Below the pieces are notes generated by a model that was not told the DNA's origin, searched no databases, and saw only the letters and a program-made list of their open reading frames with translations. From positions 1 through 24,602 of the forward strand of contig JAFCCW010000019.1 of NCBI GenBank assembly GCA_017609985.1: 24,602 nt of DNA. The letters run 5' to 3'. The stretch comes from Candidatus Iainarchaeum sp. Its GTDB lineage: Archaea > Iainarchaeota > Iainarchaeia > Iainarchaeales > JAFCCW01. Below, one piece after another: positions 1-24,602 of the stretch. The number at the start of each line of letters is the position of its first letter. Position 1 is the first letter of the stretch. The translations under genes and the position numbers were made by a program.

Positions 1-5
1 GAGAG

Positions 6-2505: not shown

Positions 2506-2551
2506 TTAAAAGAGCGGGTGAGTAGCATGTGGGCAAGTAGTGGGTGAGTAA

Positions 2552-5751: not shown

Positions 5752-5866
5752 TTTTCCACACTCCTTTGCATTGATTTTTTCGACTTCAGTTAGTTATTTG
5801 ATTTTATTGATTTTTTGATTCATTAATTTCTTTGTTTGAATTTTGATTCCCTGATTTTTTCAATTT

Positions 5867-7138: not shown

Positions 7139-10100
7139 CTAAGATTGTCCTTTAATCAGAATTGTTTTTCTCACCCAGACAAAGCAGACAGCAAGACTTG
7201 AAATAAATACTGCAATCCACAGCAAGTCTGTTGGTAAAGATGGAAGATCAAGTAGCGATCCAGAGCCAGAGCCAATATTCACATTCATGCTATTGCCTGT
7301 TGCATTTGATGTAACTGCCCCATCCGGCCCAACAGAGGTTCCAACACCAACCTGTTTGAATGCTTCAAGCAATGGAAGAAGCTGTGCATTTTCTGGATAC
7401 CACAAGCCCTTATCTGGATCGTAGTAAAAAGAACCATTCTTTCCCTGAGCAGATGTCAAAACCTCTTCAGGAGAATCATTGTATTTGAGCATTGGAATTC
7501 CGCCATCCGCTGAAAATTCAAGGTCATGAGTCTTTCCATCCTCTGTTGTTATCTTTATTCCATCAGCAGTCTGTTCTACTCCACCATCAACTATTTCAGA
7601 TTCATAGACTTCACCTGTCTGCTTGTCAATTACCTTGAAGAAGTTTTTGCAACAATCAAGGCCATTGCAACCGCCTTCTTCAACATATTTTGAATAAATT
7701 ATGAAACGTTTTGTGGGAGTATCAAACACCTGGAATGGGCCAAGATGTTTCATTGAGTCATTGAAGTTTTCAACTCTCGTGGAAATCATTTCAGAGCCTT
7801 CAGTAGCTATTGCACTTAAGTCAACTGCTGGCTCAGGACAGTTTGTAACAGGATTTGTAACCTGTGTTAAATCTGCTTTCAATCCAGCCACATCTGTTTG
7901 ATTAAGCACTGCATTCTTGTGGTGCTTTAACCAGACAATAAGCTCGTTTGTTTCAGGCTTGTAGACTATTACTCCGTTTTCAAACTGGATTGAATCAAAC
8001 AAGCCAACATTTACATCTCTGCTGTTTGAAAGCTTTACTTCTCTGCTTCCATAAACCATCGCGTGTGCGCCTGTTCCCTCTACAACTTCTCTTGGAACTC
8101 CCTCTGCAATAATTATTTTTTCAGAAGGCTTTACCAAAATAGCAGGATGTGAATCAGTAACTATTGATTTTACTTGTCCAAAAGCATCCGTAAGATTGCT
8201 TGAATAAAGCGGGACAGCAGTCTGTTCAAGAACACCTGCTTTTATGCAGTCTAAAACCTGTTTGTCAAGAACCGTAAACCTGCCGTCAACATCAAGCCTG
8301 AACAAAGGACCTGTTCCAGACAACTTAACCTTTGTCAGATTCTGTGGAATTTCCTCAGCAGGAATATTTGTATTAGTGCTTGTTAACCTTACAGCATCCT
8401 CATCATCAATCACGCCTTCTCCGTTTACCTTAATTTTTCCATCTTCAAAATCAATGTCAACATCAATTCCATTTTCTTTGTCAGAAATAACTTTTTTGCC
8501 ATCCTCTCTGTACTTGGAGGCATTGGTTTCCCCCTTAAACCAGTGATAGAACAAAGCAGGACTGGAGATTTTTCCGCTTGACTCACCCCTCATTGACACA
8601 ACGGATTCTACAACATCCGGCTTTGTCTGGCTTTTAGTGAATTTTTCGACTTGTTCCTTTACTTTTTGAGCCTGCTCTGCTAGTGCTCCGCCCTCTCCTC
8701 CGCTCAGCGAATCCATTACAGTATTTGTTCCATCGCTTACCATCTCACTAATGTTTTCAGCTGAAAGCTTGCTTGCTTGCTCTGTTCCCTCTGCTTCTTT
8801 GTCAGAAGCCGCGAACATGTGAGTATAATATCCTTCTTCAGTGTCAATGCACCCAGCAATCTTTGGAGCAACCATTATTTGTTGAACAACTGTTGAAAAA
8901 CCTCCGCCAGCCCAGCCGAACAAGAAGTAAGACAATGATTCTCCTGCAGCCATGACTCCTCCAGCCCTGCTTCCAAGATCCCAGCCAAGCAATGCTTCCT
9001 TAACAGCTTCCCTGCATGTGTTTCCCTCTCGCTCTGCCTTGACAAGGTCAATGGGTTCGCCGCCCTCTTCTCCAACCATGTTAGTGTGATGTGAAAAAGA
9101 AATAAGTGTAGTGCCTATTTCTCTTGCTTCTTTTCCAGCATCCTCAACCATATAAGCATCCAAGTTACCAGTTACGTCAAATGCTGGGCTGAAATCTTTG
9201 CCAGTCTGAGAATTTATAACTGAGGTGCAGCCATAGCATCGTTGAGAAGTAGTCATGTAAAGAGCAATGTTCTCAACCTTGTTTCTCACACCAGTGCCTG
9301 TTAACTGCTGAAATGTTTTCTTCAATGGATTGTATTTTTCTGAAACAGTGTCAAGAATCATCTTCCAAGGCAGCTTGTTTAAAACCTGTGAAAAGATATC
9401 CCCCTGGTCACTTCCAGCGTTTGCAAAATAGTCAATGTAAGCATCCTGATAGATTGGATTGTTTCCAAGAACTGAAGAAATTTCTTCCCAGGATTCAGGA
9501 AGCATGTAAGCTGAGAGACCAGAAGCAGCATCTTCTCCAACAATCTCTGCCCCTCCTCTCTTAACTTCCCAGAAGATGAATGGATAGAGAGTCCACTTAA
9601 CCCCGCCCTTTAAAATAAAATAATCTTTAAGAAGCTCGTCCTGCTGTGCAAAGGCTTTGTCAAGTGCACTGAAAAAACGCCTTTCAATATAGTTGGATTC
9701 TCTTAATGTCTTGTAAAAGTCATCAATATTTTTTGTGACAGCACTATATTTACTAAGACTTCTGTCTCTCACAAGCAAGTCCGAGAAATCCAACGGAGTC
9801 CAGTCACCAGCATGTTCCCAGCCACCGTCAAGAATTTTTACGTCACCGGAAATATTTGACTTAATAAAATTCATATTGTGTTCTGCAAGCTGCATTCTCT
9901 TGCCGTTGTCAAGCTGAACAAACTTATCCTTGTATTTTGACAAAGCCTGCTCTATGTTGTCAGCAGGAACTGATGCAATTTCATTTCCAGCTCCAATCCG
10001 ATAATAGGATAATGCTTCGCCCCCGTTTTTTGTCACATACGCAGTGTTAGAGCCAACCTCGGGGGTTGCAATGCTTTTAAAGTCAGGCTGTTTTCCAAAT

Positions 10101-11143
10101 TCCCTCATTATTTTTCCGATGTGCGTACTGTCTCCGGAAAGTTCATAAAACTCGCCAGTTGTTGCATCCTTTACAGCCATGTCATACATTCCCGAGAATG
10201 ATTCACGGCTAAAGTATTCAGGAAAATCAAGTGAAATAGTTGCATCCATGCTCTCGTAAAGACCTGATACCTTGCTACCATAGTTTACTCGTGCTGCCTG
10301 CCCAGCAGGATGATTGAATGGATCTTCAATGCCTTGCTTTCTGAGAAGAGCAATTAAGTTATCAAATTCAGACTTTGCCTTGTCCATCATTGCCTGGTTT
10401 GTTTTTTGATAGCCTCTGATTTCTGCAACACTTTTTGCAAGCTCTCTTCGCCTCACAGGGTCAGTTATTTTTCCAACAATTCCTTCCTCCGGATCCATCA
10501 TATTATTTTTAAATTTTCTCCAGCCACTGCCCGCAGTAAACTTGTAACCGCCAGTCCAGCCGTCAGTGGATTCAATCAAAGGCTCGTACACATCGTAGAG
10601 ATGATACTTGGAAAGCCGGTTGTTAAACTGGTTCAGCCTCTGCTTTCCAAACCACTGGTCTGGTCTTGTGAAAGTGTTTCTAAACCATTGATGGAATTTT
10701 GAATTGGAAATATCCCAAAACCATCCGCGCATTTCTGCCCCGCCAAGAAGTCTGCCTGCCTCTGAAAAAAAAGTTGGGCCAAAATTGCTCACAACCATTT
10801 CCGCAGAAAACCAAGAATTAAAGTATTTGTCAAAAAGAGAATAGGTTGAAATAATTGTTGCTCCTGATGTTCCATCAGTTTGTGTCTTTGCAGTAAATTC
10901 ACGGGTAAGAATTGAATTAGGAATTAAGTCAACATCAGTGTTTCTCTGCAAAAACTGGTACTGGAATGTTTGACCAAGTGACACGATATGTTCTTTTGCA
11001 TTTAGAATCTGGTCTTTTGCTTTTGCAACAGTTGATGTGGATGTGTTTTCATCACCTGTGCTTCCTGAGCTATTGTCGCCACTGCCTGTGCTATTTTTTT
11101 CCTCATCAGCATTGTTTTCGCCACTGTCTTCAGTTCCTTTACT
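7139..11143 (-). CDS. Giant cell-surface protein, C-terminal part (about 1330 aa open frame) with C-terminal TM anchor; probably joined to 11002-11796 by a -1 frame change
   Basis: The frame stays open upstream of the GTG at 10984 as far as a TGA at 11144-11146, and encodes an S/G/N/T/D linker there. It has no signal peptide of its own. It ends SGSGSLLDLPSLP-TM(LLWIAVFISSLAVCFVWV)-RK. Confidence 0.8.
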   Translation of the reverse strand, partial: SKGTEDSGENNADEEKNSTGSGDNSSGSTGDENTSTSTVAKAKDQILNAKEHIVSLGQTFQYQFLQRNTDVDLIPNSILTREFTAKTQTDGTSGATIISTYSLFDKYFNSWFSAEMVVSNFGPTFFSEAGRLLGGAEMRGWFWDISNSKFHQWFRNTFTRPDQWFGKQRLNQFNNRLSKYHLYDVYEPLIESTDGWTGGYKFTAGSGWRKFKNNMMDPEEGIVGKITDPVRRRELAKSVAEIRGYQKTNQAMMDKAKSEFDNLIALLRKQGIEDPFNHPAGQAARVNYGSKVSGLYESMDATISLDFPEYFSRESFSGMYDMAVKDATTGEFYELSGDSTHIGKIMREFGKQPDFKSIATPEVGSNTAYVTKNGGEALSYYRIGAGNEIASVPADNIEQALSKYKDKFVQLDNGKRMQLAEHNMNFIKSNISGDVKILDGGWEHAGDWTPLDFSDLLVRDRSLSKYSAVTKNIDDFYKTLRESNYIERRFFSALDKAFAQQDELLKDYFILKGGVKWTLYPFIFWEVKRGGAEIVGEDAASGLSAYMLPESWEEISSVLGNNPIYQDAYIDYFANAGSDQGDIFSQVLNKLPWKMILDTVSEKYNPLKKTFQQLTGTGVRNKVENIALYMTTSQRCYGCTSVINSQTGKDFSPAFDVTGNLDAYMVEDAGKEAREIGTTLISFSHHTNMVGEEGGEPIDLVKAEREGNTCREAVKEALLGWDLGSRAGGVMAAGESLSYFLFGWAGGGFSTVVQQIMVAPKIAGCIDTEEGYYTHMFAASDKEAEGTEQASKLSAENISEMVSDGTNTVMDSLSGGEGGALAEQAQKVKEQVEKFTKSQTKPDVVESVVSMRGESSGKISSPALFYHWFKGETNASKYREDGKKVISDKENGIDVDIDFEDGKIKVNGEGVIDDEDAVRLTSTNTNIPAEEIPQNLTKVKLSGTGPLFRLDVDGRFTVLDKQVLDCIKAGVLEQTAVPLYSSNLTDAFGQVKSIVTDSHPAILVKPSEKIIIAEGVPREVVEGTGAHAMVYGSREVKLSNSRDVNVGLFDSIQFENGVIVYKPETNELIVWLKHHKNAVLNQTDVAGLKADLTQVTNPVTNCPEPAVDLSAIATEGSEMISTRVENFNDSMKHLGPFQVFDTPTKRFIIYSKYVEEGGCNGLDCCKNFFKVIDKQTGEVYESEIVDGGVEQTADGIKITTEDGKTHDLEFSADGGIPMLKYNDSPEEVLTSAQGKNGSFYYDPDKGLWYPENAQLLPLLEAFKQVGVGTSVGPDGAVTSNATGNSMNVNIGSGSGSLLDLPSLPTDLLWIAVFISSLAVCFVWVRKTILIKGQS

Positions 11144-11796
11144 TCATCTGGAGTTGCGCCGGTTTCCTCAGTAAACTTTGCTCTTAAATTTTCATATTCT
11201 TCGGCGGAGAGTTCAGGGGGTTTTTCTACAAAAATGCTTTTGAAGTCGTCCCAGACATTTCCAAAATTCTGTTTTATTCCCTCTCCAGAATTTCGATAAG
11301 CAAGATTTTTTCCCTGAAGCATGCAACTGTTCAGGTCAAGCTCTCCAGCTTCTTTGGATTCACACCTGCCTATTCGGATTGTGTCCTCAAGAACTATGCC
11401 AAAAGCAAAAGGCCCATTATAGTGAGTGTTGATTAGATGAGAAACTTCCTCTGGATTAATTTTTTGAGAAGGCATTTCCTGTTCAATGGCTAGCTCGTCA
11501 CTTGCTTTTACAAGAAGCGTGTTCTGGTCAAGAACATCTCTGTCAAGGTCAGGTTCTGTTCCGGAACTGAGCTCACCCCCAGTAAAACCCTTGTTTATTG
11601 TTTCATCGTATAATTTCTGAACCTGTTTTGGGCCAAGGGAAGTATTTGTGCAAGCAAAACTGTTTGTGCTGGTTTCAACAACTGGCACTGCAACAGGCAC
11701 TGGGTTTTCTCCACCCACATCTGCAAAAACAGGCAGAAACATTGAATTCAAAAAGAGATAGAAAACAATTAGCGAATAAATTTTGTTCCATTGCAT
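11002..11796 (-). CDS. Secreted protein, N-terminal part of the giant surface protein (Sec signal peptide)
   Basis: MQWNKIYSLIVFYLFLNSMFLPVFA|DV signal peptide. ATG at 11796 overlaps the upstream TGA (TGATG coupling). The 3' end overlaps the downstream frame by about 140 nt. Confidence 0.8.
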   Translation of the reverse strand: MQWNKIYSLIVFYLFLNSMFLPVFADVGGENPVPVAVPVVETSTNSFACTNTSLGPKQVQKLYDETINKGFTGGELSSGTEPDLDRDVLDQNTLLVKASDELAIEQEMPSQKINPEEVSHLINTHYNGPFAFGIVLEDTIRIGRCESKEAGELDLNSCMLQGKNLAYRNSGEGIKQNFGNVWDDFKSIFVEKPPELSAEEYENLRAKFTEETGATPDEVKELKTVAKTMLMRKKIAQAVATIAQEAQVMKTHPHQLLQKQKTRF

Positions 11797-12329
11797 CAAG
11801 AACCACCGTAAATAAACATGACAAGCGCAAGCAATAACCAGGGCATTACAAACAGCACTAAAGCAATCACTATCAAAACAGTTAAATAAACTGAGGCAAA
11901 GACTTTCAGCATTGTTTTTCCAACAAATTTTTTGTCAAGGAAAGAAAAAGCAAGAGAGGCAATAAGTTCAAATGGAATCACAATAATTGTGAGAACAAGT
12001 GACTTGAGCAAGAGAGAAACAAATGTTGAAATATTGTAGAAAATTACATCCTGTGCACTTGGCAGAAATTCAGGCGGAACAGTGCCTTTAAGGTCAAATG
12101 GTACAGAAAGCAGCGGAAAGAAATACAAAAAGAATATTAATAAGGTTACAATTACATATGTGGAAATGAACGAGGTTTTAACCCAATTCATGTCCAGTTT
12201 TTTTGAAAGCTTTGACTGTATTGCTGCAGCAATTAATGCCAGCCCGAAAACAGGAATTGAAAGCAGTAATCCTGTTTTCAACAGATCAAAAACCGAAATT
12301 AGGAAAACTACGACTAAATCAAGAACCAT
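11796..12329 (-). CDS. Integral membrane protein (about 4-5 TM), co-transcribed with the giant surface protein
   Basis: Almost entirely hydrophobic 177 aa, with stop/start overlap to the next gene. Confidence 0.8.
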   Translation of the reverse strand: MVLDLVVVFLISVFDLLKTGLLLSIPVFGLALIAAAIQSKLSKKLDMNWVKTSFISTYVIVTLLIFFLYFFPLLSVPFDLKGTVPPEFLPSAQDVIFYNISTFVSLLLKSLVLTIIVIPFELIASLAFSFLDKKFVGKTMLKVFASVYLTVLIVIALVLFVMPWLLLALVMFIYGGS

Positions 12330-12352
12330 GTGAAAATTAACATTAAAACTAC

Positions 12353-12361
12353 TATAAATAA
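12353..12361. promoter_or_regulatory. TATA element in a divergent promoter region
   Basis: TATAAATAA on + (TTATTTATA on -), about 24 nt from ATG 12329 (-) and upstream of the GAGGTG RBS and TTG start at 12399 (+). Confidence 0.5.
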
Positions 12362-12398
12362 CTTTTCAAAGATGATTGGCGGAGAAGAGGTGCATTAA

Positions 12399-14711: not shown

Positions 14712-14721
14712 TAAGTAAGGC

Positions 14722-15585
14722 CTAGGGCGTAATGGACACAGGTGGACAATCAGATGTTCCAATTACACAGCACCTCAAATGAGAGTTGTCTCCTTCAAGC
14801 AATGGAAGGCCATCATTTGGTTCCGGAACTTCTCCAGAATGCCACATTAAGAGATAAGCTGTTGCAACAGGCCACTCTGTTTCAAAATGCGAACCAGCAG
14901 AACGTGATTGAGTCAGCTTTGGAAGCTTTATTGTAGTACTGCTTTGAAATATATCCCCAATGTTTACAAGAAAATTATTTGTAAAGTCATCCATTGAAAC
15001 TGGATTGCAATAGTATTCTACACGCTGGGCATCGGAAACAGTTTTGTATCTCCCCTCTCCCTCAAGCGCGTATTTTGTCCATTTCAGATACATGTAAACA
15101 AATTCATCTGTTACAGCAGAACCAGGATCAGGTTCTATGTGAATATAGAAAACATAGTTGAAGACATCGCTTTGCGGAGCCATAACTCCCTTGACAACAG
15201 AAGTAAGGGTTTCCCTGTAATCATCCAGCATGCTGTCATCAGCATAGTCTTCTTTAATAGCAGTAATCAGGTAGTCTACTTCTTTTGCATCAGAGATAGA
15301 AGCAGAGTCTCCACGCGGAACAGTAACATACATTATTGTTTTAAGAGATGAATCAATGTATTCTGCAAAATATTGTTTGTCAAGCTGTTTTGTTACAAGA
15401 AAGCCGTACTGAGTTGAAGAGATAAGCAGGAAAACTGAAAGCACTGAAACAATCATTAAGAAAAACATTGCATCTGTCACAGAAGCTTGTCCATTTGAAT
15501 CCCTTGATTTTGATTGATTCAAAGACCAAGCTTGGTTTGAATACAATGATTGCTTTAATTGCTTTAACTTGATTAATAAGCCCAT
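14722..15585 (-). CDS. Pilin-like protein with class III signal peptide (minor pilin)
   Basis: SNG|QASVTDAMFFLMIVSVLSVFLLISS. Last gene of the pilin run. Exact start uncertain. Confidence 0.75.
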   Translation of the reverse strand: MGLLIKLKQLKQSLYSNQAWSLNQSKSRDSNGQASVTDAMFFLMIVSVLSVFLLISSTQYGFLVTKQLDKQYFAEYIDSSLKTIMYVTVPRGDSASISDAKEVDYLITAIKEDYADDSMLDDYRETLTSVVKGVMAPQSDVFNYVFYIHIEPDPGSAVTDEFVYMYLKWTKYALEGEGRYKTVSDAQRVEYYCNPVSMDDFTNNFLVNIGDIFQSSTTIKLPKLTQSRSAGSHFETEWPVATAYLLMWHSGEVPEPNDGLPLLEGDNSHLRCCVIGTSDCPPVSITP

Positions 15586-16151
15586 AACACAATCACCAAA
15601 ACCATTGGCCTGACTGCAAACTTGCTGTCAAGCGTTCTTGCCATGTCAGGATTACTCTCTGACCAGATTTTTGTTGTTTGAAGAGCAATAGGATACTGTA
15701 CTACAACATAGTCTCCGCTTCTTGAAGAAGCATCTTCTTCAACATTAGTGCACCTGAAATCCTGTCCTGTTTCAGGGTCTTTGTAGAATTGAATGTCCAA
15801 AACATTAACTGTTTCGTAAACATCTTCAATCTTTTCTTCACCGATTTTAAGTTCAACCAAGCCAGCTCTGTACTTGAGCTTTTTGATTCCAAGAGAATCG
15901 CAGACTTTCTGAAATGAATCATGTCCTTGAATATATGCCGCAGACCTCATTTCAGCAGTAATCTTTGAAGACTCAACAGATCTGTCAAAAACAGTGTTGT
16001 GTCTGTCAAACTCGTTCAAGGAATATGAAAAAACTCCAAAGAAAAGAACAAGAGCAAAGATAAGTGGAATAAGGCTGGGAATATCATCTCCAATCGGACC
16101 AATAAAACCTTTTTTGTTAATCACCACTTTTTCGTTAATCACCAATATCAC
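15573..16151 (-). CDS. Pilin-like protein with class III signal peptide
   Basis: NKKG|FIGPIGDDIPSLIPLIFALVLFFGVFSYS. The start may be one of the downstream GTG codons. Confidence 0.72.
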   Translation of the reverse strand: MILVINEKVVINKKGFIGPIGDDIPSLIPLIFALVLFFGVFSYSLNEFDRHNTVFDRSVESSKITAEMRSAAYIQGHDSFQKVCDSLGIKKLKYRAGLVELKIGEEKIEDVYETVNVLDIQFYKDPETGQDFRCTNVEEDASSRSGDYVVVQYPIALQTTKIWSESNPDMARTLDSKFAVRPMVLVIVLWAY

Positions 16152-16860
16152 ATCCGCAAGTCCACTCGCTCACAGTATCAGATTCACAGCAGGGAGCTAG
16201 AGGAAAACAGGCTCCTTCAAAACCGCGCTCTTTTTTTATCATACAGCCAACTAAACCAAGATTTTCTTCACAAAAGCCTCCGTCTACTCCCCCTTTTGAA
16301 GAGCAGGCAATGATGTAGATTGTTTTTTCTCCCTCATATCTTTCCATTAAAATTGTTACTGCATCTTTTGGAATTTGCTCTCCCCACATGTCTCTCTGAG
16401 GATCAATTAGAAGAGAATCAGATTCTTCAAAAAAACACTTGTTTCTTGTCTCATCCTCAACCCATTCAAACAAGCGAACATTTGCAAAGGTTTCAAAATC
16501 GGTTCCGCCAATTATTTGGGTTGGGTCAATTCTGCTTGCTGCTTTGAGGAGAATATAGTTTTTGCCAGAGTCATTTTCAACAAGCTTTGAAATTTTAACA
16601 GTGTAAAAATAACGTCCACCAGAAGCAATATCTGCAAAATAGTCAATGTATTTTGGAACTGAATTAATAGGGCTCCTGTCACAGATTGATTCCGAATCAA
16701 TCTTGTTGTAGATGTCGCTTCCTATTCTTTTGTCAATTATTTGCTGAGCAGAGTACTTGACCAGAACAGTGCTCCAGCCAAACATGAAGTAAGTGAGAAT
16801 AACAAACATGGAAAGAACAAGAATTAGCAAATTTATTTTGCTTATTGTAAAACCAAACAT
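16135..16860 (-). CDS. Pilus-associated single-TM Cys-rich protein (no class III leader)
   Basis: MFGFTISKINLLILVLSMFVILTYFM N-terminal helix, 10 Cys, GAGGTGA RBS upstream, embedded in the pilin operon. Confidence 0.75.
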   Translation of the reverse strand: MFGFTISKINLLILVLSMFVILTYFMFGWSTVLVKYSAQQIIDKRIGSDIYNKIDSESICDRSPINSVPKYIDYFADIASGGRYFYTVKISKLVENDSGKNYILLKAASRIDPTQIIGGTDFETFANVRLFEWVEDETRNKCFFEESDSLLIDPQRDMWGEQIPKDAVTILMERYEGEKTIYIIACSSKGGVDGGFCEENLGLVGCMIKKERGFEGACFPLAPCCESDTVSEWTCGCDIGD

Positions 16861-16906
16861 TCTTTCACCTCAAAACCTCAACTTTTATTAAACTCATTCG
16901 CTTTTT

Positions 16907-17464
16907 TTAAACTCGTTCCTTTTTGTAAGCGCAAATTGTTGGAATCCCACCAGTAATGCTTTTGTTAAGCAGCATATATCTGCCCTGCGGAATATCCTCT
17001 GAAAGATCTTGAAGAACAAATTTTTCAAACTGTCCGTCTATAGGGCAGGGCCCTGGATTTGACTGAGAAGGATAGTTTGTTTGAGCAGGAATGCTTAAAC
17101 ATTTTCTGAAACCAAAATCAGGATTGGTATAGCTGAGCAAAACACAGTTTTTCATTATTCCACTGCAAAAATTTTCGCACAAATATTCATTGTCAACGTG
17201 AACAACAAAAAAGTCCTCGTCTTCATCGGAATAGCAATCGTTTGGAAAATCAACAATTGTGTCAACACTTCCCTTCTTTATTACAACTTCTTCAAGCGCT
17301 GCTCTAAAGTCTTCCGACAGCTTGTTTATTTTCTGCCTGCAAACCTTGTCCTGAATGTCCTGCATTGCCATATATCCTGCAACAAGAACAAAACCCATTA
17401 TAACCACGGCAACAAGCAACTCAAAAGGAGCTTCCTCTTGTCCTTTTTCATCTAAGAATTGCAT
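16907..17464 (-). CDS. Pilin-like protein with class III signal peptide
   Basis: DEKG|QEEAPFELLVAVVIMGFVLVAG followed by an amphipathic helix. 8 Cys. Confidence 0.8.
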   Translation of the reverse strand: MQFLDEKGQEEAPFELLVAVVIMGFVLVAGYMAMQDIQDKVCRQKINKLSEDFRAALEEVVIKKGSVDTIVDFPNDCYSDEDEDFFVVHVDNEYLCENFCSGIMKNCVLLSYTNPDFGFRKCLSIPAQTNYPSQSNPGPCPIDGQFEKFVLQDLSEDIPQGRYMLLNKSITGGIPTICAYKKERV

Positions 17465-17635
17465 TCAAGCACCTGCTGGTTTTAGCTCTGCTTTTTGAAC
17501 AAGCTGTTGGCTTTGCTTGAACATAGGCTTTACTACAGCTATCAAAAGCAGAGCAGCTATTGCCAGGACTATGAGAAGATATATTGAACTCCATTCACTC
17601 TGTCCTTGCTCTTCTCTTAAAATCTCTTCAAGCAT
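17465..17635 (-). CDS. Small Flp-like pilin (56 aa), not in the supplied ORF track
   Basis: Manual translation: MLEEILREEQG|QSEWSSIYLLIVLAIAALLLIAVVKPMFKQSQQLVQKAELKPAGA*. Its TGA (17465-17467) abuts the ATG of the next pilin. TATA-like TATTAAATA 28 nt upstream. Confidence 0.85.
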   Translation of the reverse strand: MLEEILREEQGQSEWSSIYLLIVLAIAALLLIAVVKPMFKQSQQLVQKAELKPAGA

Positions 17636-17663
17636 TTAAACCAGTAATAGAAGCAGATTGTGG

Positions 17664-17679
17664 TATTTAATAGTTTCTC
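17664..17679 (-). promoter_or_regulatory. BRE/TATA promoter for the small pilin and downstream minor pilins
   Basis: Minus strand GAGAAAC-TATTAAATA, 28 nt before ATG 17635. Confidence 0.55.
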
Positions 17680-17730
17680 AAAAAAATAAAAATGAAAAAA
17701 ATAGGGCTTTTGCCCGGAGAAATTAATCTC
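17680..17730 (-). terminator. Hairpin plus poly-T terminator after the putative major pilin
   Basis: Minus strand GGGC-AAAA-GCCC followed by several T-runs, preceded by a second weak hairpin GAGA-TTAATT-TCTC. Confidence 0.6.
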
Positions 17731-17744
17731 TAATTGCCTGAAGT

Positions 17745-18326
17745 TTAGTTGCCTAAAAGAACTACTACACAACAGGTTTCAGAATCGCCTTCGCAAATTC
17801 CTTCGTCTATTGGACAACAGTCATCAATATGGTCTTCGTAGTCGTCTTCACCTAAGGCATCATATATTCTTCCGCCAAGAGAAATTGCTGATTTAACTCC
17901 TTCAATTCCTTTGTCACAGAGAACAGCAATTTTTGCCTGTTTGTCTCCGCCATCATATGTGATTGATTGCCCAAGACTTGTGTATTCCCAGTTTGGTTTT
18001 CCTTCGTCACAGTCTCCGTCTGAAAAGTCTCCAAGTAACAAGCAAACTTGTTCCTGTGTTAATGCTACTTTTCCTCCGCTGACTACGGCACGAGAGTTAA
18101 TGTTTGTTCCTCTTGCAAACTGCACTGGATTTGAAACAACCTCAGAAGACAGCTTTCCCGCAGAAGCATCTTTCAAGGAAGTCGTGATTGCATCAGTAGG
18201 GTCTGTTTGACCAAGAGAGGGAATCACGCCAATTATTGAAAAAAGAATTGTGAGAATTGCCATTGCAACGATTGCTGCAATTAGAAGTTTAAAGGTGGAA
18301 TATGCTTGACCTTTTGAATTCATCAT
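17745..18326 (-). CDS. Type IV pilin, candidate major subunit
   Basis: NSKG|QAYSTFKLLIAAIVAMAILTILFSIIGVI. Has its own TATA, GGGTGA RBS and terminator. 8 Cys, acidic C-terminal region. Confidence 0.82.
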   Translation of the reverse strand: MMNSKGQAYSTFKLLIAAIVAMAILTILFSIIGVIPSLGQTDPTDAITTSLKDASAGKLSSEVVSNPVQFARGTNINSRAVVSGGKVALTQEQVCLLLGDFSDGDCDEGKPNWEYTSLGQSITYDGGDKQAKIAVLCDKGIEGVKSAISLGGRIYDALGEDDYEDHIDDCCPIDEGICEGDSETCCVVVLLGN

Positions 18327-18358
18327 TTAAATCACCCACTAAAAGAAACACATTCTTG

Positions 18359-18375
18359 TATTTAAATATTTCTTA
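18359..18375 (-). promoter_or_regulatory. BRE/TATA promoter of the candidate major pilin
   Basis: Minus strand AAGAAATA-TTTAAATA, about 33 nt before ATG 18326, with GGGTGA at 18332-18337. Confidence 0.6.
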
Positions 18376-18481
18376 AAGGATTCAGCACCCAATTATGCAG
18401 TTTAGAACCCAATGTGCAATTCAAAATTCAGCATGCAATTCATAATCGATTATGCAATTCAGAACTTGGTTATACAATTCA
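18376..18481. repeat. Degenerate 19-20 bp tandem repeat (core TGCAATTCA) containing a perfect 14-bp palindrome
   Basis: Cores at 18396 (TGCAGTTTA), 18415, 18434, 18453 (TGCAATTCA) and 18473 (TACAATTCA), spaced 19, 19, 19 and 20 bp. CATAATCGATTATG palindrome at 18441-18454. Confidence 0.75.
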
Positions 18482-18943
18482 GGACTCTAATGACTCAATC
18501 TCTTTTCCGAATGAAATTAGACAGCATTGAATGCACTCTTCTGGACAGTCAGAATCAAGCTGTTGAAGAGCACACCTGTAATAAACATCAACAGAAACAG
18601 GGTTTGCAGAGTAAACCGATTTTGAGTTTTCACCCAGCTTGAAGCCCAGTCTTTCATTTGCATCAAAGCTAATGCATTGTTCTCCCATTGCAACAAGCTC
18701 TGAAAGTCCACGGCTGTTCACACTCTGGCCTACTCCAAGAGAAAGGCTTTTTTCCACAATAACGCTTCCGTCCTTGAGTTCTGAAGCAGATTCAAAACCG
18801 TCAATAAAAATTCTCCAGTCAATATCAGTGCTCTTTTGTTCAAAGAAGTGAATTGTTGCAACAATCATAACCATTATTGCAAGACCCATTATTGCTCCAA
18901 TCAAGAGACGATATGCCGAGAAAGCCTGTCCCCTGTTGTTCAC
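18479..18943 (-). CDS. Type IV pilin-like protein, paralog of 17745-18326
   Basis: NNRG|QAFSAYRLLIGAIMGLAIMVMIVATI. Shares (I/V)NSR, EQ(V)C and a terminal C..CC-hydrophobic pattern with the neighbouring pilin. GTG start overlaps the platform gene stop. Confidence 0.8.
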   Translation of the reverse strand: MNNRGQAFSAYRLLIGAIMGLAIMVMIVATIHFFEQKSTDIDWRIFIDGFESASELKDGSVIVEKSLSLGVGQSVNSRGLSELVAMGEQCISFDANERLGFKLGENSKSVYSANPVSVDVYYRCALQQLDSDCPEECIQCCLISFGKEIESLES

Positions 18944-21282
18944 GCAAACCCTCCTCCGAAAAAAGAGCTTACAATAAAGTTTGTGGCAACAACTGCAAGA
19001 AGGAATGCACCAACAGCAATTGGCATGGATTTTGCAATATTTATTTTTGCGAGAAGAGAATTGTCTTCTTCAATTCTGGTAGTGAACCAGCTCATTATTA
19101 TGACAAGCTCTAGAACATAAATTGCAACAATGATGAGAAATTCTGCAGGAGAAGCAAGGCTTTTAAGTGATTCAACTCCTCCGCCAAACACCTGGTCCAT
19201 TTGGTCAAATGAAGCGAATTCTGCAGGAAGATCTTTTGCAGTACTAAGAGCAGAGGAAGGAGACTGCATTGAAATCTGAGCAACAGTCAGCATAACAATT
19301 TTTTGAAACGCAGCAGTTATTCCAAGAACAATTGGAGCAATAAACATAGTCATTGTTTTCATCATAGAGGTTACGTCTGAAACAAGAACTTTGAGCATTC
19401 GCTGAACTTTTTCAGTGTTTGAAAGCTGAAGGGAAAGAGAAATCAGTGTTCTGGACGCAACATTTACTCCAAGGCGCACAGAGTCAATCAAAAGTTTCAT
19501 TCCACTTCTGATTCCCTCAGACGGAATATCTTTCAAAACACCGTACTGTGAATCAAAGACAGCGTTTTCAAGAGTCATTCCAAACAAGCTGATGTTATCA
19601 TAGGCTCTTCCGAAAATTTTTTCAGAAATTGTAAGTGTTGGCAAAAATTCCCGCGTATGCCTTAATGCTTCTTCAACAGGCTTGTTTTCTCCAAGACGGG
19701 ATGCAAGAACATAGAGAGAGTCCTTGAATTCTGACTCCATTTCCATTACTTCCACTTGAACTTTTCTTTTGTAAATATTTCTGAAATAAATTAAAACAAA
19801 ACCGCAAAGTGAAGAAGTCAAAAGCATTCCAAAAATCAGATTATAGGGCGTGGTGTCATTCGCAGGAGTCATAAAGAAAATAAAGGCCTCATCTTCTGTT
19901 TTCTGCCAGGCAATTTCTGCATCCAACCCCTGCGAGATATACTGCTGATAGGCTTGCCCGCCTTTGTCAAAGTAAGCAGAGTCGTTTTTTTCCATTAACA
20001 AGATGTCATCCCTTGATTTGTCAGCTGGAAGAAGCTGTCCGGAAAAACCATCTTCTCCAAAAAAAGACTTGGGGGGAATCCCCTCAGCTGAAAGAAAAAG
20101 TGAAACCATTAAACCAATTACCAGGACTATTCCTGCAAAAACTCTTGCATCCATTGAAAAATTTTTTGTGCGAATCATCCACTTGGGTGGAAGATCAGGG
20201 TGATTGTCTGGAATTTCAGGAGGCGAACGAGTAGGCGGTTTTTCAGAAACAACTTTTCTTGCAAAGAAAAGAACTGCTCCCGGAATCAATACATTGTAAA
20301 GCAGAAAAAGAACCCAAGTGACAGCAAAACCCTGTCCAGTAAAAGCAGAGCCAACAGGCAGGATTATTATGAGAATCAATGGAAGGAGAACTCCTAAATA
20401 AAAAAGCATGACAGATGGCTGGGAAAGATTTCGTGCATAGTCCTCCATCTTTGACTTAATTGATTCAAGAATTGAAGTCATGGTCTTGTCAAGAAGTTGA
20501 TAGCGTTTTGCTTCAGTGTTTTCAAGAACAGAGGCGCGAATCATCATCAAAGCATGTTTGAATTCCTCGGAATTGTTTCCCCACCTGTAAGCTAAATCAT
20601 CAAGCCCCTCTGATAAAGAAGAAAACACTCCTAATTGAACATCCCAAAGCATTCTTTTGAAGTCCTCTGCTATCTTGCCCCGCCCGTGCTCTGCTGAAAA
20701 TTCAACAGCTTTTTCAAGATTTGGAACAAGCTTCATGGACATAATCATGTATCCAAGAATCTCAGGCACATAGGTTAGGGCGCGAGTTTGTTCCATTCGA
20801 ACCTCGGTTAGAGGAAAGTTTTGAACAAAGCTGGCTATGTAAATTCCAACTGCAAGAGGCAAGCCATAAATGTAAACTATTGCCAGTCCACCAGCAAGCT
20901 CTCCAATTAAATCTGCAAGAGGGGAGAGAGCAGTAAGAGTTCCAACAACAAAAGCCAGCATGATAACTGCTAAAAGAGTAAACTTTGTTGCAGCAGCAAA
21001 CTGTTCTGCTTTCAAATCCCATCCAAGAAAATTTATTGCATTCCTGTACTGGCCAGTGTAATGAGCTCCGTTTCCAAGAGAAGGAACCATTGAATGAATT
21101 CTTTTGCAAAAAACAACATAAGGGTGTTCTCCTCTTTTGACAAGCTTTCCCTCTCCTTCATCAAACTCGGGCCTTGAAACAGTAATGTTTCTGTACATTG
21201 CTCCTGGAGAAAGCGGTTTCATCTTTCTAGAAAAATCTATTTTTGATTTTCTTGCTCTTGATTTTATTGGCATTTCAAACAA
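18940..21282 (-). CDS. Fused double-domain pilus platform protein (TadB+TadC/FlaJ-like, T2SSF family)
   Basis: Two cytoplasmic T2SSF-like domains (VPEILGYMIMSMKLVPNLEKAVEF; EFKDSLYVLASRLGENKPVEEAL) flanked by multiple TMs. Directly downstream of the ATPase. Confidence 0.85.
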   Translation of the reverse strand: MFEMPIKSRARKSKIDFSRKMKPLSPGAMYRNITVSRPEFDEGEGKLVKRGEHPYVVFCKRIHSMVPSLGNGAHYTGQYRNAINFLGWDLKAEQFAAATKFTLLAVIMLAFVVGTLTALSPLADLIGELAGGLAIVYIYGLPLAVGIYIASFVQNFPLTEVRMEQTRALTYVPEILGYMIMSMKLVPNLEKAVEFSAEHGRGKIAEDFKRMLWDVQLGVFSSLSEGLDDLAYRWGNNSEEFKHALMMIRASVLENTEAKRYQLLDKTMTSILESIKSKMEDYARNLSQPSVMLFYLGVLLPLILIIILPVGSAFTGQGFAVTWVLFLLYNVLIPGAVLFFARKVVSEKPPTRSPPEIPDNHPDLPPKWMIRTKNFSMDARVFAGIVLVIGLMVSLFLSAEGIPPKSFFGEDGFSGQLLPADKSRDDILLMEKNDSAYFDKGGQAYQQYISQGLDAEIAWQKTEDEAFIFFMTPANDTTPYNLIFGMLLTSSLCGFVLIYFRNIYKRKVQVEVMEMESEFKDSLYVLASRLGENKPVEEALRHTREFLPTLTISEKIFGRAYDNISLFGMTLENAVFDSQYGVLKDIPSEGIRSGMKLLIDSVRLGVNVASRTLISLSLQLSNTEKVQRMLKVLVSDVTSMMKTMTMFIAPIVLGITAAFQKIVMLTVAQISMQSPSSALSTAKDLPAEFASFDQMDQVFGGGVESLKSLASPAEFLIIVAIYVLELVIIMSWFTTRIEEDNSLLAKINIAKSMPIAVGAFLLAVVATNFIVSSFFGGGFA

Positions 21283-21313
21283 CCCATGCTATTTTTTTGC
21301 AACATAGTCAAAA

Positions 21314-23602
21314 TCATTTTTTTGCAATAACCTGTTTTACAAGCTTGTTTCTGACCCAGTACTTCCACTTACCAATCAATTCATCATAGTCAACAGAGCC
21401 ATGTTCCACAATTTGATTTTCTTTGAGAAGCAATAGCTTGTTGTGAGCAAACGAACTGTTCTCTGCCTCAAGCAGTTCAGGTAACTTAAATTCTTCTTTT
21501 AGGTCAACAAGGAAAGAATTTGCATTTCCCCTTGCCCTGATGTCTTTCCAGATTTCCTTTACATTCATTCCCGACGTCATCCTGATTTTGTCAAAAAGTT
21601 CACTTTCTTTCAGGTTGTCTTCAAGAAGTTCTAGTTCATCCTTTTTTGCATCGTAAAGCATTAAGTCAAGCAAGCCACCCTCTTCTTCCGGATCTTCACG
21701 CCAATGCTTTTTAACTTCAGTTATTTGAACCACGCGCTTGTGTCTTGTAAGCGAACCAGCAAACCTTATTGGTCTTGCTACAACAACAACATCTGTTGCC
21801 TTGAAAGAAGTGTTCGGTACTTCAAGATCGTTGACTACACGATCCCAGACGCTATAAGCAGAGTCTCCGTGAATTGTTCCCATTACAACATTTCCTGCTG
21901 CTCCAATTCTCATTGCCTCATAAAGAACTTTTGCTTCCTTGGAACGAACCTCTCCCAAAATCAAAGCAGAGTCTCCGAGGCGCAAAGCAGTTCTCAAAGA
22001 CTCCTCTGGAGCAACCTCTGTCTCGGTTTTTGAAACACTGATTGCAGACCTGGTTTTGAGGCGCTGGATGTTGTAACCTATTCTCTTCAGGTATTCAACT
22101 GGAATTTCAAGCGTGTCCTCTTGCACAATTATTCTTGAATTCTGCAAAATTTCCTGAACCAAGGCACCGAGAAGAGATGTCTTTCCCGAACCCCTGCTAC
22201 CAGTAATCAAGGACGTAGCCTGCATGTCAATAAAGAAGGAAAGCAAGCCAGCGGAAAGAGAATTCATGTACTTAACATCAATGAATTGGGGCAGAGTCCA
22301 CGGCGTTATCTTGTGAAGTCTGAAAGCAAAAGCTAAACCATCAGTTGCAAGAGGCGGACCAATTACTGCAACACGTGTTTCAAGGTCAGGCAAGTCATAG
22401 TCGAGAACAGGATGTGCTTCGTCAAACGGGCGACCAGACATTGCCCTGATTTTTGAAACAAGAGATTCTGCTTCGTTCTGCGTATAAATTATGTTCGTCT
22501 GGCATTGCCCAAAGTCAGAGTGAACTGCATAAATAGGCTTTTGACCGATTGGAGAGTCAAGATAAATATCAGTCATTTTTCTGTCAGACAAAAGAACTTC
22601 AAGCATCCCATATCCAACAGTGTAGCGGGCAACAATTTCTGCAAGATTAACAATTTCTTCCTTTGAAAGCTCAACACGAAATTCTTTGGCAACATCGCGA
22701 ATTGTTGATTCATAAATTCTTTCAAAATACTTGCGGGATTTTGCAACAGTGCTTAATGAAGTGCGACCTGGCTTGTAACCAGCAACAACCTCTCTTGTTT
22801 TGCTGAGAACAAAATATTTCTCAGGAGGCAGTAAGTATTCAGGAGGATTGATGAAATAAATTTTCTCAATTTTGTCAGGATGACTAAAGATTTGAACAGT
22901 TGAACCCATTACCTGATATTCGTCAAGCAATTCCATTTGCTCAATTCCCTTAAACATTAAGCGGGAGCCAATAAAAGAAGGCTTAATCGATGCCTCAAAA
23001 AACGCCCTGTATAGCTCGGTTGATTCTGGAATTTTTACAGAACGCTGAAGAAATTTTCGCGAAGACTTGATAAGCCTTGTTTCCTCAAACGCCTCTTTGA
23101 TGCTGGCAAGTGTTTCAAGATAGGATTCAGTGCACTTTGCATATGCTCCTCCCTCTTGTTGCATGCGCTTGCTTTCTCTGGAAATTTCGTTAAGGCAGGT
23201 TAGATAAGCCATGATTGGATCATAGGAAAGAAGATCATGCGCTATCTTGACAACAGCATTGTGCCTTTCAGAAAAATATTTTTCACAGCCTTCACCAGCT
23301 TTTCCAAGATGAGAATAGCTCCAGATGCTCTCGACTTCAAATCGCTGGAGAAGATTTGCAACCTCGGAAAGCATTTGAGTCTGGTCTTCTTCGTAAACTC
23401 GTTCATAAACTTCTGCCAAGACAAGAAGGTCTGCTTCAACCTTGTTCAAAACAGAAATTGCGTGAAACCTGCATGCCTTGTCATCAGCAATGTTTGCTGA
23501 ATAAACACAGTTTTTGCAGTCAAAAATAAGATGTCTCCGCCCACCCTCTTCTTTGACTGCATAATCTCCTACCTTAAAGCCGCCTATTCGCATAACAAAC
23601 AC
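21314..23602 (-). CDS. Type IV pilus assembly ATPase (FlaI/CpaF family) with extended N-terminus
   Basis: Walker A GSRGSGKTS, QEDTLEIP, LRLGDSALILGEVR, GTIHG and KRVVQITEV. The real start may be ATG 23593. Confidence 0.93.
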   Translation of the reverse strand: MFVMRIGGFKVGDYAVKEEGGRRHLIFDCKNCVYSANIADDKACRFHAISVLNKVEADLLVLAEVYERVYEEDQTQMLSEVANLLQRFEVESIWSYSHLGKAGEGCEKYFSERHNAVVKIAHDLLSYDPIMAYLTCLNEISRESKRMQQEGGAYAKCTESYLETLASIKEAFEETRLIKSSRKFLQRSVKIPESTELYRAFFEASIKPSFIGSRLMFKGIEQMELLDEYQVMGSTVQIFSHPDKIEKIYFINPPEYLLPPEKYFVLSKTREVVAGYKPGRTSLSTVAKSRKYFERIYESTIRDVAKEFRVELSKEEIVNLAEIVARYTVGYGMLEVLLSDRKMTDIYLDSPIGQKPIYAVHSDFGQCQTNIIYTQNEAESLVSKIRAMSGRPFDEAHPVLDYDLPDLETRVAVIGPPLATDGLAFAFRLHKITPWTLPQFIDVKYMNSLSAGLLSFFIDMQATSLITGSRGSGKTSLLGALVQEILQNSRIIVQEDTLEIPVEYLKRIGYNIQRLKTRSAISVSKTETEVAPEESLRTALRLGDSALILGEVRSKEAKVLYEAMRIGAAGNVVMGTIHGDSAYSVWDRVVNDLEVPNTSFKATDVVVVARPIRFAGSLTRHKRVVQITEVKKHWREDPEEEGGLLDLMLYDAKKDELELLEDNLKESELFDKIRMTSGMNVKEIWKDIRARGNANSFLVDLKEEFKLPELLEAENSSFAHNKLLLLKENQIVEHGSVDYDELIGKWKYWVRNKLVKQVIAKK

Positions 23603-23648
23603 ATATCACAGTTTTCGCCAAGATTCAGTGGATTAAATAGCATTAAAC

Positions 23649-23656
23649 TTATATAA
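23649..23656. promoter_or_regulatory. Palindromic TATA box in the ATPase/sortase divergent promoter region
   Basis: TTATATAA is self-complementary and lies 24 nt before ATG 23680, in a 77-bp intergenic gap. Confidence 0.5.
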
Positions 23657-23679
23657 AAGAATTAGCTTGAATTAAAGTA

Positions 23680-24255
23680 ATGGTTGCTGAGAAGTTTTTG
23701 GAAAGTGAAGACATAAAAAGTGGAGCAAGATTTCTTGCCTTGTTCTCTGTTTTTTTTCTTGCATCTATTGTTCTGGTCTACTTTGCACCGCTTGAACAGG
23801 TTGAAGGATTTGTTGCAGAGCAGGCATTGTTTGTTCTTGAAGCAAACAGTATTAGAGGAATATTGGAGCTGAGCGAGCCAGTACTTATTCTACTTTCGAC
23901 AGGGCACACAATTTCAATCTCGTTTCTTTGCACTGGATTGCTGGAAATAGCAGTGCTTGCTTCAGCTATTCTTGCATCTTATGGAATATCTTGGAGTAGA
24001 AGAATTCTGGGAGTTTTGATTGCAGTGTTTTTTGCACACTTGTTCAATCTTGCGAGGATTGTGATAACAGTGTTTGCAGTGCTTGAGCAGCCACCCTATG
24101 TTGCAGAGCTAGCTCACGACTTCCTGTTCAGACTGTTATTGTTTGCAATTGTTTTCTTGATGTATGCAGTGTGGTTTGCGATTGTGACTGGAAAGTTGCA
24201 GGCTTATGTGCCAAAGGGAAAAGGAAAAGAATTAATAGTTGAAAAGAGAAAATAG
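23680..24255 (+). CDS. Exosortase/archaeosortase family transpeptidase (short ArtE/XrtH-like)
   Basis: Multi-TM 191 aa protein with catalytic-type Cys in ISFLCTGL, Arg in FNLARI and His in LAHDFLF. Confidence 0.87.
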   Translation: MVAEKFLESEDIKSGARFLALFSVFFLASIVLVYFAPLEQVEGFVAEQALFVLEANSIRGILELSEPVLILLSTGHTISISFLCTGLLEIAVLASAILASYGISWSRRILGVLIAVFFAHLFNLARIVITVFAVLEQPPYVAELAHDFLFRLLLFAIVFLMYAVWFAIVTGKLQAYVPKGKGKELIVEKRK

Positions 24256-24263
24256 TGGTCTTT

Positions 24264-24602
24264 ATGGAACAGCCTGTTAAGATGCTTGTGATTGCGATTG
24301 CTGCAGCAGCCTTATTACTGATGTTTATACTTTACATTGCACCGCAGTTTTATCAACAACCAGAACCAATTGATGAAATACACGAAAGTCTGTCAATAGC
24401 AGAAAACTCACTTGGAACAATGACAGACACAAAAGAAATAGAATTCGGAATAGAGCATCCGCATCTTAACGCAAAAACCTTTGAATATGAAACACAAAGA
24501 AGCGTAACAATCCACTGCAACAACGAAAACATCTGCTGCGACAAAGACACAGACTGCACCAAAATAATCAAATGGAACGAACTAACAGCAAACTTCGGAC
24601 AA
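24264..24602 (+). CDS. Pilin-like/single-TM Cys-rich exported protein, truncated by the window end (not in the ORF track)
   Basis: Manual translation: MEQPVKMLVIAIAAAALLLMFILYIAPQFYQQPEPIDEIHESLSIAENSLG...HCNNENICCDKDTDCTKIIKW.... Open for 113 codons to the edge, starting 8 nt after the sortase stop. Confidence 0.75.
   Translation, partial: MEQPVKMLVIAIAAAALLLMFILYIAPQFYQQPEPIDEIHESLSIAENSLGTMTDTKEIEFGIEHPHLNAKTFEYETQRSVTIHCNNENICCDKDTDCTKIIKWNELTANFGQ

Follow-up and report, generated by a model that had tools for sequence, protein, structure and literature searches.

Composition of the locus

We analysed a stretch of 24,602 nucleotides from Candidatus Iainarchaeum sp. (assembly GCA_017609985.1, contig JAFCCW010000019.1), hereafter the window, which corresponds to the entire 24.6-kb contig C5 of a 1.16-Mb genome in 37 contigs, with an estimated completeness of 86.6%. 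From the listing of open reading frames (ORFs) and from Pfam and NCBIfam family scans we built a map of positions 7139–24602, where we identified a locus coding for the ATPase and the platform protein of a type IV filament (T4F) machine, seven prepilin-like proteins, a Zn-ribbon protein, a protein with five transmembrane (TM) segments (5-TM partner), a giant secreted protein and a small membrane enzyme of the exosortase/archaeosortase family, the mini archaeosortase (Table 1). This inventory confirms that of a preliminary description, made from the sequence alone, which had also stated that prepilin peptidase and archaellum-specific genes are missing; indeed, neither a peptidase A24 nor an archaellum-specific family was detected in the window. 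As that description had anticipated, the peptidase is encoded elsewhere: contig C25 carries two A24 peptidase genes, and a different T2SSE ATPase is encoded at about 5 kb from one of these. The genome contains four T2SSE ATPases, so the T4F system of the window is one of several systems, and, since the window is a whole contig, the locus is truncated at its right end.

The source names of homologues agree with the placement of this genome in Iainarchaeota (Diapherotrites, DPANN). For comparison we used an order sample of 101 genomes, including that of the window, and a phylum sample of 151 genomes. Sampled genomes are designated by G-numbers (G000 being the genome of the window), families by f-numbers, fetched loci by L-numbers and contigs by C-numbers.

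Table 1. Features of the T4F/archaeosortase locus, with positions in the window (↓, predicted prepilin cleavage site; aa, amino acid residues)
Feature	Position	Strand	Observations
ORF running off the contig end	24255..24602	+	N-terminal TM helix, Cys-rich start
Mini archaeosortase, 191 aa, "T4F-type" clade	23680..24255	+	TIGR04178, 38.5 bits (cut-off 23)
Divergent intergenic region archaeosortase/ATPase, 77 bp	23603..23679		A/T-rich TATA-like boxes, read directly
T4F ATPase, 762 aa as listed	21314..23602	-	T2SSE (PF00437), 64.2 bits (cut-off 24.9)
Platform protein, TadC/FlaJ/T2SSF type, 780 aa	18940..21282	-	T2SSF, 23.0 bits (cut-off 25.2); 9 hydrophobic segments
pil154, prepilin-like	18479..18943	-	RGQ↓AFS and hydrophobic helix; no Pfam family
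pil193, prepilin-like, pil154 paralogue	17745..18326	-	KGQ↓AYS
pil56, mini prepilin-like, 56 aa	17465..17635	-	Best conserved of the seven, 41-70% identity
pil185, prepilin-like, first of four "minor" genes	16907..17464	-	KGQ↓EEAPFELL
pil241, prepilin-like, "minor"	16135..16860	-	M-x-G↓F-T-L-S-K
pil192, prepilin-like, "minor"	15573..16151	-	KG↓FIGPIGDD-[LI]PSL-[IV]P, then TM
pil287, prepilin-like, "minor"	14722..15585	-	NGQ↓ASVTDAMFF
Zn-ribbon protein, 770 aa	12399..14711	+	N-terminal TM segments, long K/E-rich disordered region, C-terminal double Zn ribbon
5-TM partner, 177 aa	11796..12329	-	Stop overlaps start of giant gene
Giant, N-terminal piece, 265 aa	11002..11799	-	Sec-type signal peptide; last ~40-50 residues out of frame
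Frameshift zone in giant gene	11005..11143	-	Both frames open; low-complexity linker
Giant, main part, 1281 aa	7139..10984	-	Iainarchaeota-specific secreted family
Giant, C-terminal tripartite signal	7142..7246	-	LPSLPTD (family consensus NLPSLPE), TM helix, R/K tail

The filament motor and the pilin-like proteins

The ATPase is a member of the T2SSE family, its nearest relatives of solved structure being Archaeoglobus fulgidus GspE (2oap, 5.4e-30), followed by CpaF and FlaI. The listed GTG start is probably too early, since the relatives begin at the equivalent of ATG 23593 (MKIGGF). The N-terminal ~50 residues contain a conserved C..C ... C..H pattern, which suggests a Zn site. We also noticed that, in at least 10 of the 101 order genomes, the ATPase orthologue lies within an open frame of ~1,225-1,835 aa and its match is split at query residue ~492-498 (G041:C4, G094:C14, G099:C62, G008:C13, G025:C13, G035:C19, G052:C32, G064:C109, G095:C14 and G034:C37), or at ~553 in the case of G091; this looks like an intein-type insertion in the ATPase core. 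The ATPase and the archaeosortase genes are divergent, and the TATA-like boxes between them may act as promoters.

The platform protein belongs to the T2SSF type. Among ten platform orthologues T2SSF was detected in eight at E<=0.01 and reached the cut-off in five, the protein of the window falling just below it. Its gene adjoins that of the ATPase in seven of the nine relatives first fetched. The platform had been described as fused, which is not borne out, as a second T2SSF repeat was undetectable by sequence tests.

Seven ORFs were assigned as prepilin-like by an N-terminal motif, [KR]G↓ or G↓ ahead of a hydrophobic helix. Their class III-type N-termini are conserved in the orthologues (RGQ↓AF, KGQ↓AYS, E(R/K)(A/G)Q↓SEW, KGQ↓E.APFELL, M.G↓FTLSK, KG↓FIGPIGDD.PSL.P and KGQ↓A..TDA, in the order pil154, pil193, pil56, pil185, pil241, pil192 and pil287); that of pil154 is kept in six of the eight orthologous ORFs listed. 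None of the seven proteins reached a Pfam or NCBIfam cut-off. The short and best conserved pil56 is likely to be the main filament subunit. In pil192, a conserved polar handle, FIGPIGDD[LI]PSL[IV]P, is located past the predicted cleavage site and ahead of the helix, and shares the element LPSL.P with the sorting motif of the giant protein described below. By inspection of 10 genomes we observed no co-variation between the LPSL of pil192 and the motif of the giant; in families f3 and f31 the latter is altered and the former retained.

The 5-TM partner matched no Pfam or NCBIfam family, one orthologue having a weak, sub-threshold 60KD_IMP row, and its orthologues were identified in seven of nine relatives. 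The Zn-ribbon protein gave only sub-threshold Zn-ribbon matches and its orthologues weak RING/B-box-like ones; its gene, on the opposite strand, keeps its position in G016, G015, G011, G001, G024, G010 and G054.

The giant secreted protein and its proposed sorting signal

In the relatives, the giant protein is encoded by one open frame of about 1,440-1,710 aa, which the family profile matches end to end. The preliminary description referred to a roughly 1550-aa protein; this holds for the relatives, while in the window the gene is divided into two ORFs (265 and 1281 aa) in different frames, and in the genome of the window the profile matches from position 207 only, within a 1334-codon open frame. 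The frameshift may be either an assembly error or genuine. Public DNA over this region consists of four contigs of related strains, 88-99% alike, none of which bridges 11095-11134, and no public RNA runs covering it are listed.

The giant matched no Pfam or NCBIfam family, including no PilC/PilY1 family. Its 120 homologues contain no Pfam domain, and the names shown are all "hypothetical" or "uncharacterised", most homologues being unnamed. AlphaFold2 modelled residues 30-1229 with a predicted local distance difference test (pLDDT) value of 84.5 and the C-terminal 441 residues with a pLDDT of 93.1 and a predicted template-modelling score of 0.90; in the models the N-terminal half is of the alpha/beta type and the C-terminal half is rich in beta structure. 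A look-up in the ESM Atlas returned no usable match. The protein has a single C-terminal TM segment and a low density of N-glycosylation sequons (10 in 1281 aa); its Cys pairs are invariant, and its acidic and His motifs are strongly conserved.

All nine giant orthologues fetched have a signal peptide at the start; at the end, N[LI]P..PE directly adjoins a TM helix, after which comes a basic tail. The pattern [LIFMV]P[STA][LIVM]P[EDTQ] fits 95 of the 120 family representatives, 73 of these 95 as LPSLPE, and in each of the 95 a TM segment and basic residues come next; the other 25 are mostly near-variants, and three of the 25 are truncated. A tripartite signal in which the motif abuts the helix is the mark of the targets of membrane-embedded sorting enzymes (Haft, 2023 preprint). 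The PGF-, PEF-, PEP-, VPXXXP- and Loki-CTERM models did not exceed their cut-offs on the giant, and, when the NCBIfam CTERM models were compared with the C-termini of the window giant and of three relatives, the sole row at E<=10 was Loki-CTERM (13.1 vs 19.9). We scanned the genome of the window for the motif, using 3,491 open frames of at least 80 aa, 121 of which finish with a TM helix and then a basic residue; among these 121, the giant is the only one that carries it. Since no NCBIfam signal model fits and none of the other frames of this set has the motif, we consider that the giant is probably the dedicated substrate of the mini archaeosortase. In family f31 both the enzyme and the motif have diverged (WDIPLT, SIPLFEG).

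The mini archaeosortase

The enzyme had been named a sortase, a label that has to be replaced: it exceeds the TIGR04178 cut-off and is a member of the exosortase/archaeosortase family, unrelated to the Gram-positive sortases, and no Gram-positive sortase family appeared among the Pfam/NCBIfam rows (E<=0.01) of any ORF in the window. PF09721 fell just short of its cut-off (23.6 vs 25.7 bits). The enzyme has four hydrophobic segments, as a polytopic membrane protein, and Cys84, Arg126 and His146 are invariant in a 17-sequence alignment; Cys/Arg/His is the proposed catalytic triad of exosortases and archaeosortases (Haft, 2023 preprint). It did not reach the cut-off of any named subfamily model, the best rows being XrtX (41.6 vs 170), XrtH (32.1 vs 86) and ArtD (20.1 vs 125).

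A second gene of the exosortase/archaeosortase family is located in the same genome at G000:C18:61166-62097, directly downstream of the CDP-archaeol synthase gene (CarS, PF01864). In the tree, this CarS-linked paralogue and the window enzyme form separate clades (support 99/96), and the latter thus represents a distinct lineage, which we named "T4F-type". The predicted complex between the enzyme and the last 60 residues of the giant scored 0.29, with a mark of 0.32, which is evidence neither for nor against their interaction.

A candidate second signal, ..ISVPD[MI] directly adjoining a TM helix with a basic tail behind it, was observed in ORFs on G000:C9 (468 aa) and G000:C25 (978 aa), with a possible third on G000:C32 (1400 aa, GGFPDM); this signal is perhaps the one recognised by the CarS-linked paralogue.

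Conservation and gene linkage

The genes of the locus are widespread. The ATPase was found in all 101 order genomes (in 95 of the other 100 as a clear orthologue, with 56-73% identity), the enzyme in 91 of 101, including all 45 high-quality genomes, and, by profile search, the giant in 98 of 101, and in 150 of the 151 phylum genomes. Enzyme and ATPase genes share a contig in 56 genomes and are at most 8 kb apart in 52, the exceptions being two f3 genomes and two with a distance of 10-13 kb. The ATPase and the giant genes are on the same contig in 37 genomes (<=25 kb apart in 32), and those of the enzyme and the giant in 32 (<=30 kb apart in 27). Of five genomes belonging to other orders of the same class, four have an exosortase-family gene as the immediate divergent neighbour of the ATPase gene; in the fifth the ATPase gene is at a contig edge.

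Comparing the window proteins with the fetched loci (tblastn), we observed an identical, gene-for-gene order in six relatives, which represent six families: enzyme; ATPase, platform, pil154, pil193, pil56, pil185, pil241, pil192 and pil287; Zn-ribbon protein, on the opposite strand; 5-TM partner and giant. The preliminary description would have been contradicted by relatives in which the sortase-like, giant and Zn-ribbon genes are not linked to the pilus genes; these genes are linked across the order and the class.

Rearranged genomes, more informative than the conserved order, reveal which parts of the locus stay together. In family f30 (G029 and G097) a breakpoint lies between pil56 and pil185, so that one site contains the enzyme, ATPase, platform and three pilin-like genes, and the other pil185, pil241, pil192, pil287 and the giant gene. 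In G054 the enzyme/ATPase pair was relocated as a unit about 125 kb away, the platform, pilin, Zn-ribbon, 5-TM and giant genes being still together. In family f3 (G002 and G033) the ATPase and the enzyme genes are each elsewhere, and the platform, all pilin-like and the giant genes are still together. The giant gene is therefore found with the four minor pilin-like genes in all five rearranged genomes (G029, G097, G002, G033 and G054), and the enzyme gene is still with that of the ATPase in three of the five. In family f31 the enzyme gene is 4-5 kb downstream of the giant gene and away from the ATPase gene, in both genomes that have the two on one contig; by the tree, this enzyme is an orthologue of that of the window (support 99/96).

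At the left end of the window (3-3466) there is another system, with a ferredoxin-fused FlaI-like ATPase and two separate T2SSF genes. It had been considered distinct from the present locus, a separation that we could not sustain: it is syntenic with the locus in the relatives and, in G070 (L020 2-7714), the giant gene comes immediately after it, in the same orientation.

Proposed working of the locus and alternative readings

We consider it reasonably probable that the locus encodes a phylum-wide surface apparatus of three modules: a T4F motor, a minor-pilin/giant module and a dedicated mini archaeosortase. The first module would be formed by the ATPase and platform motor with pil154, pil193 and pil56, the second by pil185, pil241, pil192, pil287, the 5-TM partner and the ~1,550-aa secreted giant, and the third by the enzyme, whose gene is divergent from that of the ATPase. 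One of the two class III signal peptidases, whose genes lie outside the locus, would cleave the pilin-like proteins, which the ATPase and the platform would then assemble into a putative filament. The giant would be exported by Sec and retained in the membrane through its C-terminal helix; by analogy with ArtA, the archaeosortase would recognise NLPSLPE at the membrane face, remove the helix and transfer the giant to a lipid or another acceptor. The processed giant may then act together with the four minor pilin-like proteins, either as the distal element or the cargo of the filament, in the manner of PilY1 with minor pilins, or as a passenger that a short pseudopilus pushes or positions, similarly to a type II secretion system (T2SS). 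It could be an adhesin, pilus cargo or an envelope protein.

Several observations weigh against this proposal. The giant gene is frameshifted in this assembly. The locus is scattered in family f3, where the ATPase gene, the enzyme gene and the remaining genes lie apart, and the genes of the enzyme and of its proposed substrate are not adjacent in most genomes but 12-16 kb apart. None of 38 scanned pilin-like orthologues reached any Pfam cut-off, these proteins being recognised by their N-termini alone. No convincing match to a known adhesin or pilus-associated fold was obtained with the 1200-residue and 441-residue models of the giant: Foldseek retrieved only beta-propellers for the C-terminal domain, with E-values down to 3.8e-5, template-modelling scores of 0.08-0.15 and root-mean-square deviations above 18 Å, and the best VIA-align hit (Z of 7.0 over 84 residues) was a small barrel. 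Finally, the giant is universal and single-copy (150/151), which fits a surface layer (S-layer)-like envelope protein at least equally well, and the functionally unrelated PAC2 and riboflavin genes are syntenic too, PAC2 being also beside the giant gene in G054, G030 and G072, so that adjacency alone is weak evidence.

The last two points are also the basis of the best-surviving alternative, to which we attribute a minor but appreciable probability, namely that two independent systems share an ancient neighbourhood: an ordinary adhesion pilus, and an archaeosortase whose single substrate is the S-layer-like main envelope protein of Iainarchaeota, anchored in the way of the Haloferax S-layer glycoprotein by ArtA. 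The combination of a signal peptide and a C-terminal archaeosortase-type signal is that of an ArtA substrate, and S-layer-like proteins are often encoded near archaeal type IV pilus (T4P) loci, where they are not counted as components (PMC4858521). Against a mere shared neighbourhood, the giant retains its four minor pilin-like neighbours across three kinds of breakpoint, in the five rearranged genomes, and the enzyme retains the ATPase as divergent neighbour throughout the class. Typical S-layer proteins are fast-evolving and heavily glycosylated, and the invariant Cys pairs, the acidic and His motifs and the low sequon density of the giant seem unlike this type.

The three-module apparatus could also have a different mechanical role, in a variant that we regard as rather unlikely: the T4F genes would build a short pseudopilus, a T2SS-like piston moving or positioning the processed giant through or onto the envelope. 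The set of four minor and few major pilin-like genes resembles the pseudopilins of T2SS, and there is no dedicated peptidase and no retraction ATPase in the locus. GlyGly-CTERM proteins processed by rhombosortase require T2SS for surface localisation (Haft, 2023 preprint), and a T4P-associated secretion system has been reported in Clostridium perfringens. Against this variant, the sequence shows nothing that separates a pseudopilus from a pilus, and the 56-aa subunit seems to resemble the short pilins that form filaments. Moreover, a piston would find no outer barrier or secretin equivalent to cross, none being known in these archaea.

A more speculative extension, which we deem improbable, is that the archaeosortase works as a true transpeptidase, joining the C-terminus of the giant covalently to a pilin-like subunit instead of anchoring it to lipid. 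The best candidate acceptor would be pil192, which, as predicted from its N-terminus, would expose the unusual, polar Gly/Pro/Asp-rich FIGPIGDD handle, with the LPSL.P element found also in the signal of the giant, after prepilin cleavage. If true, this would mean a sortase-style covalent step within a T4F system, and a filament or pseudopilus bearing a covalent 1,500-residue head.

A divergent archaellum or another characterised archaeal filament (Epd, Aap, Ups or bindosome) is highly improbable, since, although the best NCBIfam row of the ATPase is the FlaI equivalog, followed by BasE and TadA, the scores are far below the cut-offs (138.9 vs 550 for FlaI and 67 vs 1000 for BasE), there is no ArlH, ArlF, ArlG, ArlCDE, ArlX, archaellin or pilin family in the window, and the four T2SSE ATPases of the genome indicate several systems; we rejected the archaellum because its families are missing from the window and the equivalog scores are sub-threshold.

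Comparison with known systems

One of the closest counterparts of the enzyme/giant pair is ArtA/PGF-CTERM of Haloferax volcanii, where ArtA anchors the S-layer glycoprotein (PMC12462473; Haft, 2023 preprint). Both enzymes are polytopic Cys/Arg/His membrane proteins of the same superfamily, and both systems have a large secreted surface substrate with a tripartite C-terminal signal, whose motif abuts the TM helix (Haft, 2023 preprint). In contrast to ArtA, the enzyme described here has only 191 aa and belongs to no named subfamily, its motif is NLPSLPE instead of PGF, it has one substrate per genome rather than many, and its gene is divergent from that of a T4F ATPase. A one-to-one relation is also found in dedicated systems, such as JDVT-CTERM/MrtJ and several exosortase subfamilies, which are recognised by a regularly shared gene neighbourhood and not by many targets (Haft, 2023 preprint). 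Differently from these, the enzyme and target genes are here generally separated by 12-16 kb, a distance occupied by an entire T4F operon, and the system is universal in the phylum rather than sporadic.

The rhombosortase/GlyGly-CTERM and T2SS genes of bacteria are not known to be in one locus, and PilY1/PilC is a large non-pilin protein that works with minor pilins in bacterial type IVa pili. The module of four minor pilin-like genes and a giant gene, separable from the ATPase and major pilin genes, is reminiscent of PilY1/PilC; nevertheless, neither sequence similarity nor a convincing fold similarity to it was found for the giant (propeller rows with template-modelling scores <=0.15), which has a C-terminal membrane anchor and sorting signal, and the archaeal pilins carry class III signal peptides. 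In the case of rhombosortase, the GlyGly-CTERM cargo is processed and then depends on T2SS (Vibrio cholerae; Haft, 2023 preprint). A cargo of a sorting protease may likewise be handed to a T4F-type machine here, but rhombosortase is of the rhomboid protease family and operates in a bacterium with an outer membrane.

As in other archaeal T4F systems, an ATPase, a platform and pilins with class III signals are combined with a peptidase in trans, and several of those systems have accessory proteins described as "S-layer-like" or "adhesin" (PMC4858521; PMC13705601). In contrast to the catalogued systems, the pilin-like and accessory proteins of the present locus match no Pfam or NCBIfam family. 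A 2026 survey with MacSyFinder2 reported that an ordered T4F locus is rare in DPANN (PMC13705601), whereas the locus described here is ordered and conserved. The words sortase, archaeosortase and exosortase are absent from the available text of Makarova et al. 2016 (PMC4858521) and of PMC13705601, supplementary tables apart.

Novelty and significance

Since the pilin-like proteins, the giant and its partner have no Pfam or NCBIfam match, there is no gene-for-gene correspondence between this locus and a characterised pilus. We found no description of it in the literature searched on DPANN archaeosortases, on pili of archaea in general and of Diapherotrites, Iainarchaeota and Forterrea, and on archaeosortase-pilin neighbourhoods, nor in the available portions of PMC6393860, PMC4858521, PMC12462473, PMC13705601, PMC5905446 and the Haft 2023 preprint, which agrees with its previous designation as an undescribed machine. 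What is new is the NLPSLPE signal, the minimal enzyme lineage and its fixed association with a T4F machine; the components themselves are of known kinds.

Archaeosortase-type processing and T4F assembly have been treated as separate pathways, and they are present here as one conserved unit in essentially every genome of the phylum. The locus thus allows testing, in archaea, whether a sorting protease and a T4F machine cooperate. There is at least one DPANN phylum with an ordered T4F locus whose subunits escape the current family models, and NLPSLPE-CTERM and the minimal archaeosortase subfamily can be used for annotation. The function previously advanced, host attachment, was deduced from the dependence of DPANN archaea on host contact. 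Diapherotrites were earlier proposed as free-living (PMC5905446), and therefore host dependence is not established for this phylum; attachment to a host may be the function of the apparatus, as may adhesion of another kind. Whether these organisms live freely or depend on a host is unsettled, and the locus provides a definite candidate for their principal apparatus of surface or contact.

Neighbouring genes

The ORF that runs off the contig end had no homologue in the loci of nine relatives, and its membership in the system is therefore doubtful. The two filament systems of the window are separated by two DMRL-synthase-family genes, a gene for a CTP-dependent riboflavin kinase with a helix-turn-helix domain and a PAC2 proteasome-chaperone gene (5350-6996), and several relatives show the same synteny for these genes. 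G011 (L007:1-6973) and G015 (L005:1-6635) have, downstream of the enzyme gene, a gene for a protein exceeding 2,200 aa, which begins with a conserved cytoplasmic segment and continues with a TM helix; the contig of the window ends before the point where such a gene could appear. In G030, of family f31 (L033:16778-18150), the T4F-type enzyme gene overlaps the end of a 271-aa gene, whose GGGxxG and GxSxG-like motifs bear a tentative resemblance to those of a patatin-like phospholipase.

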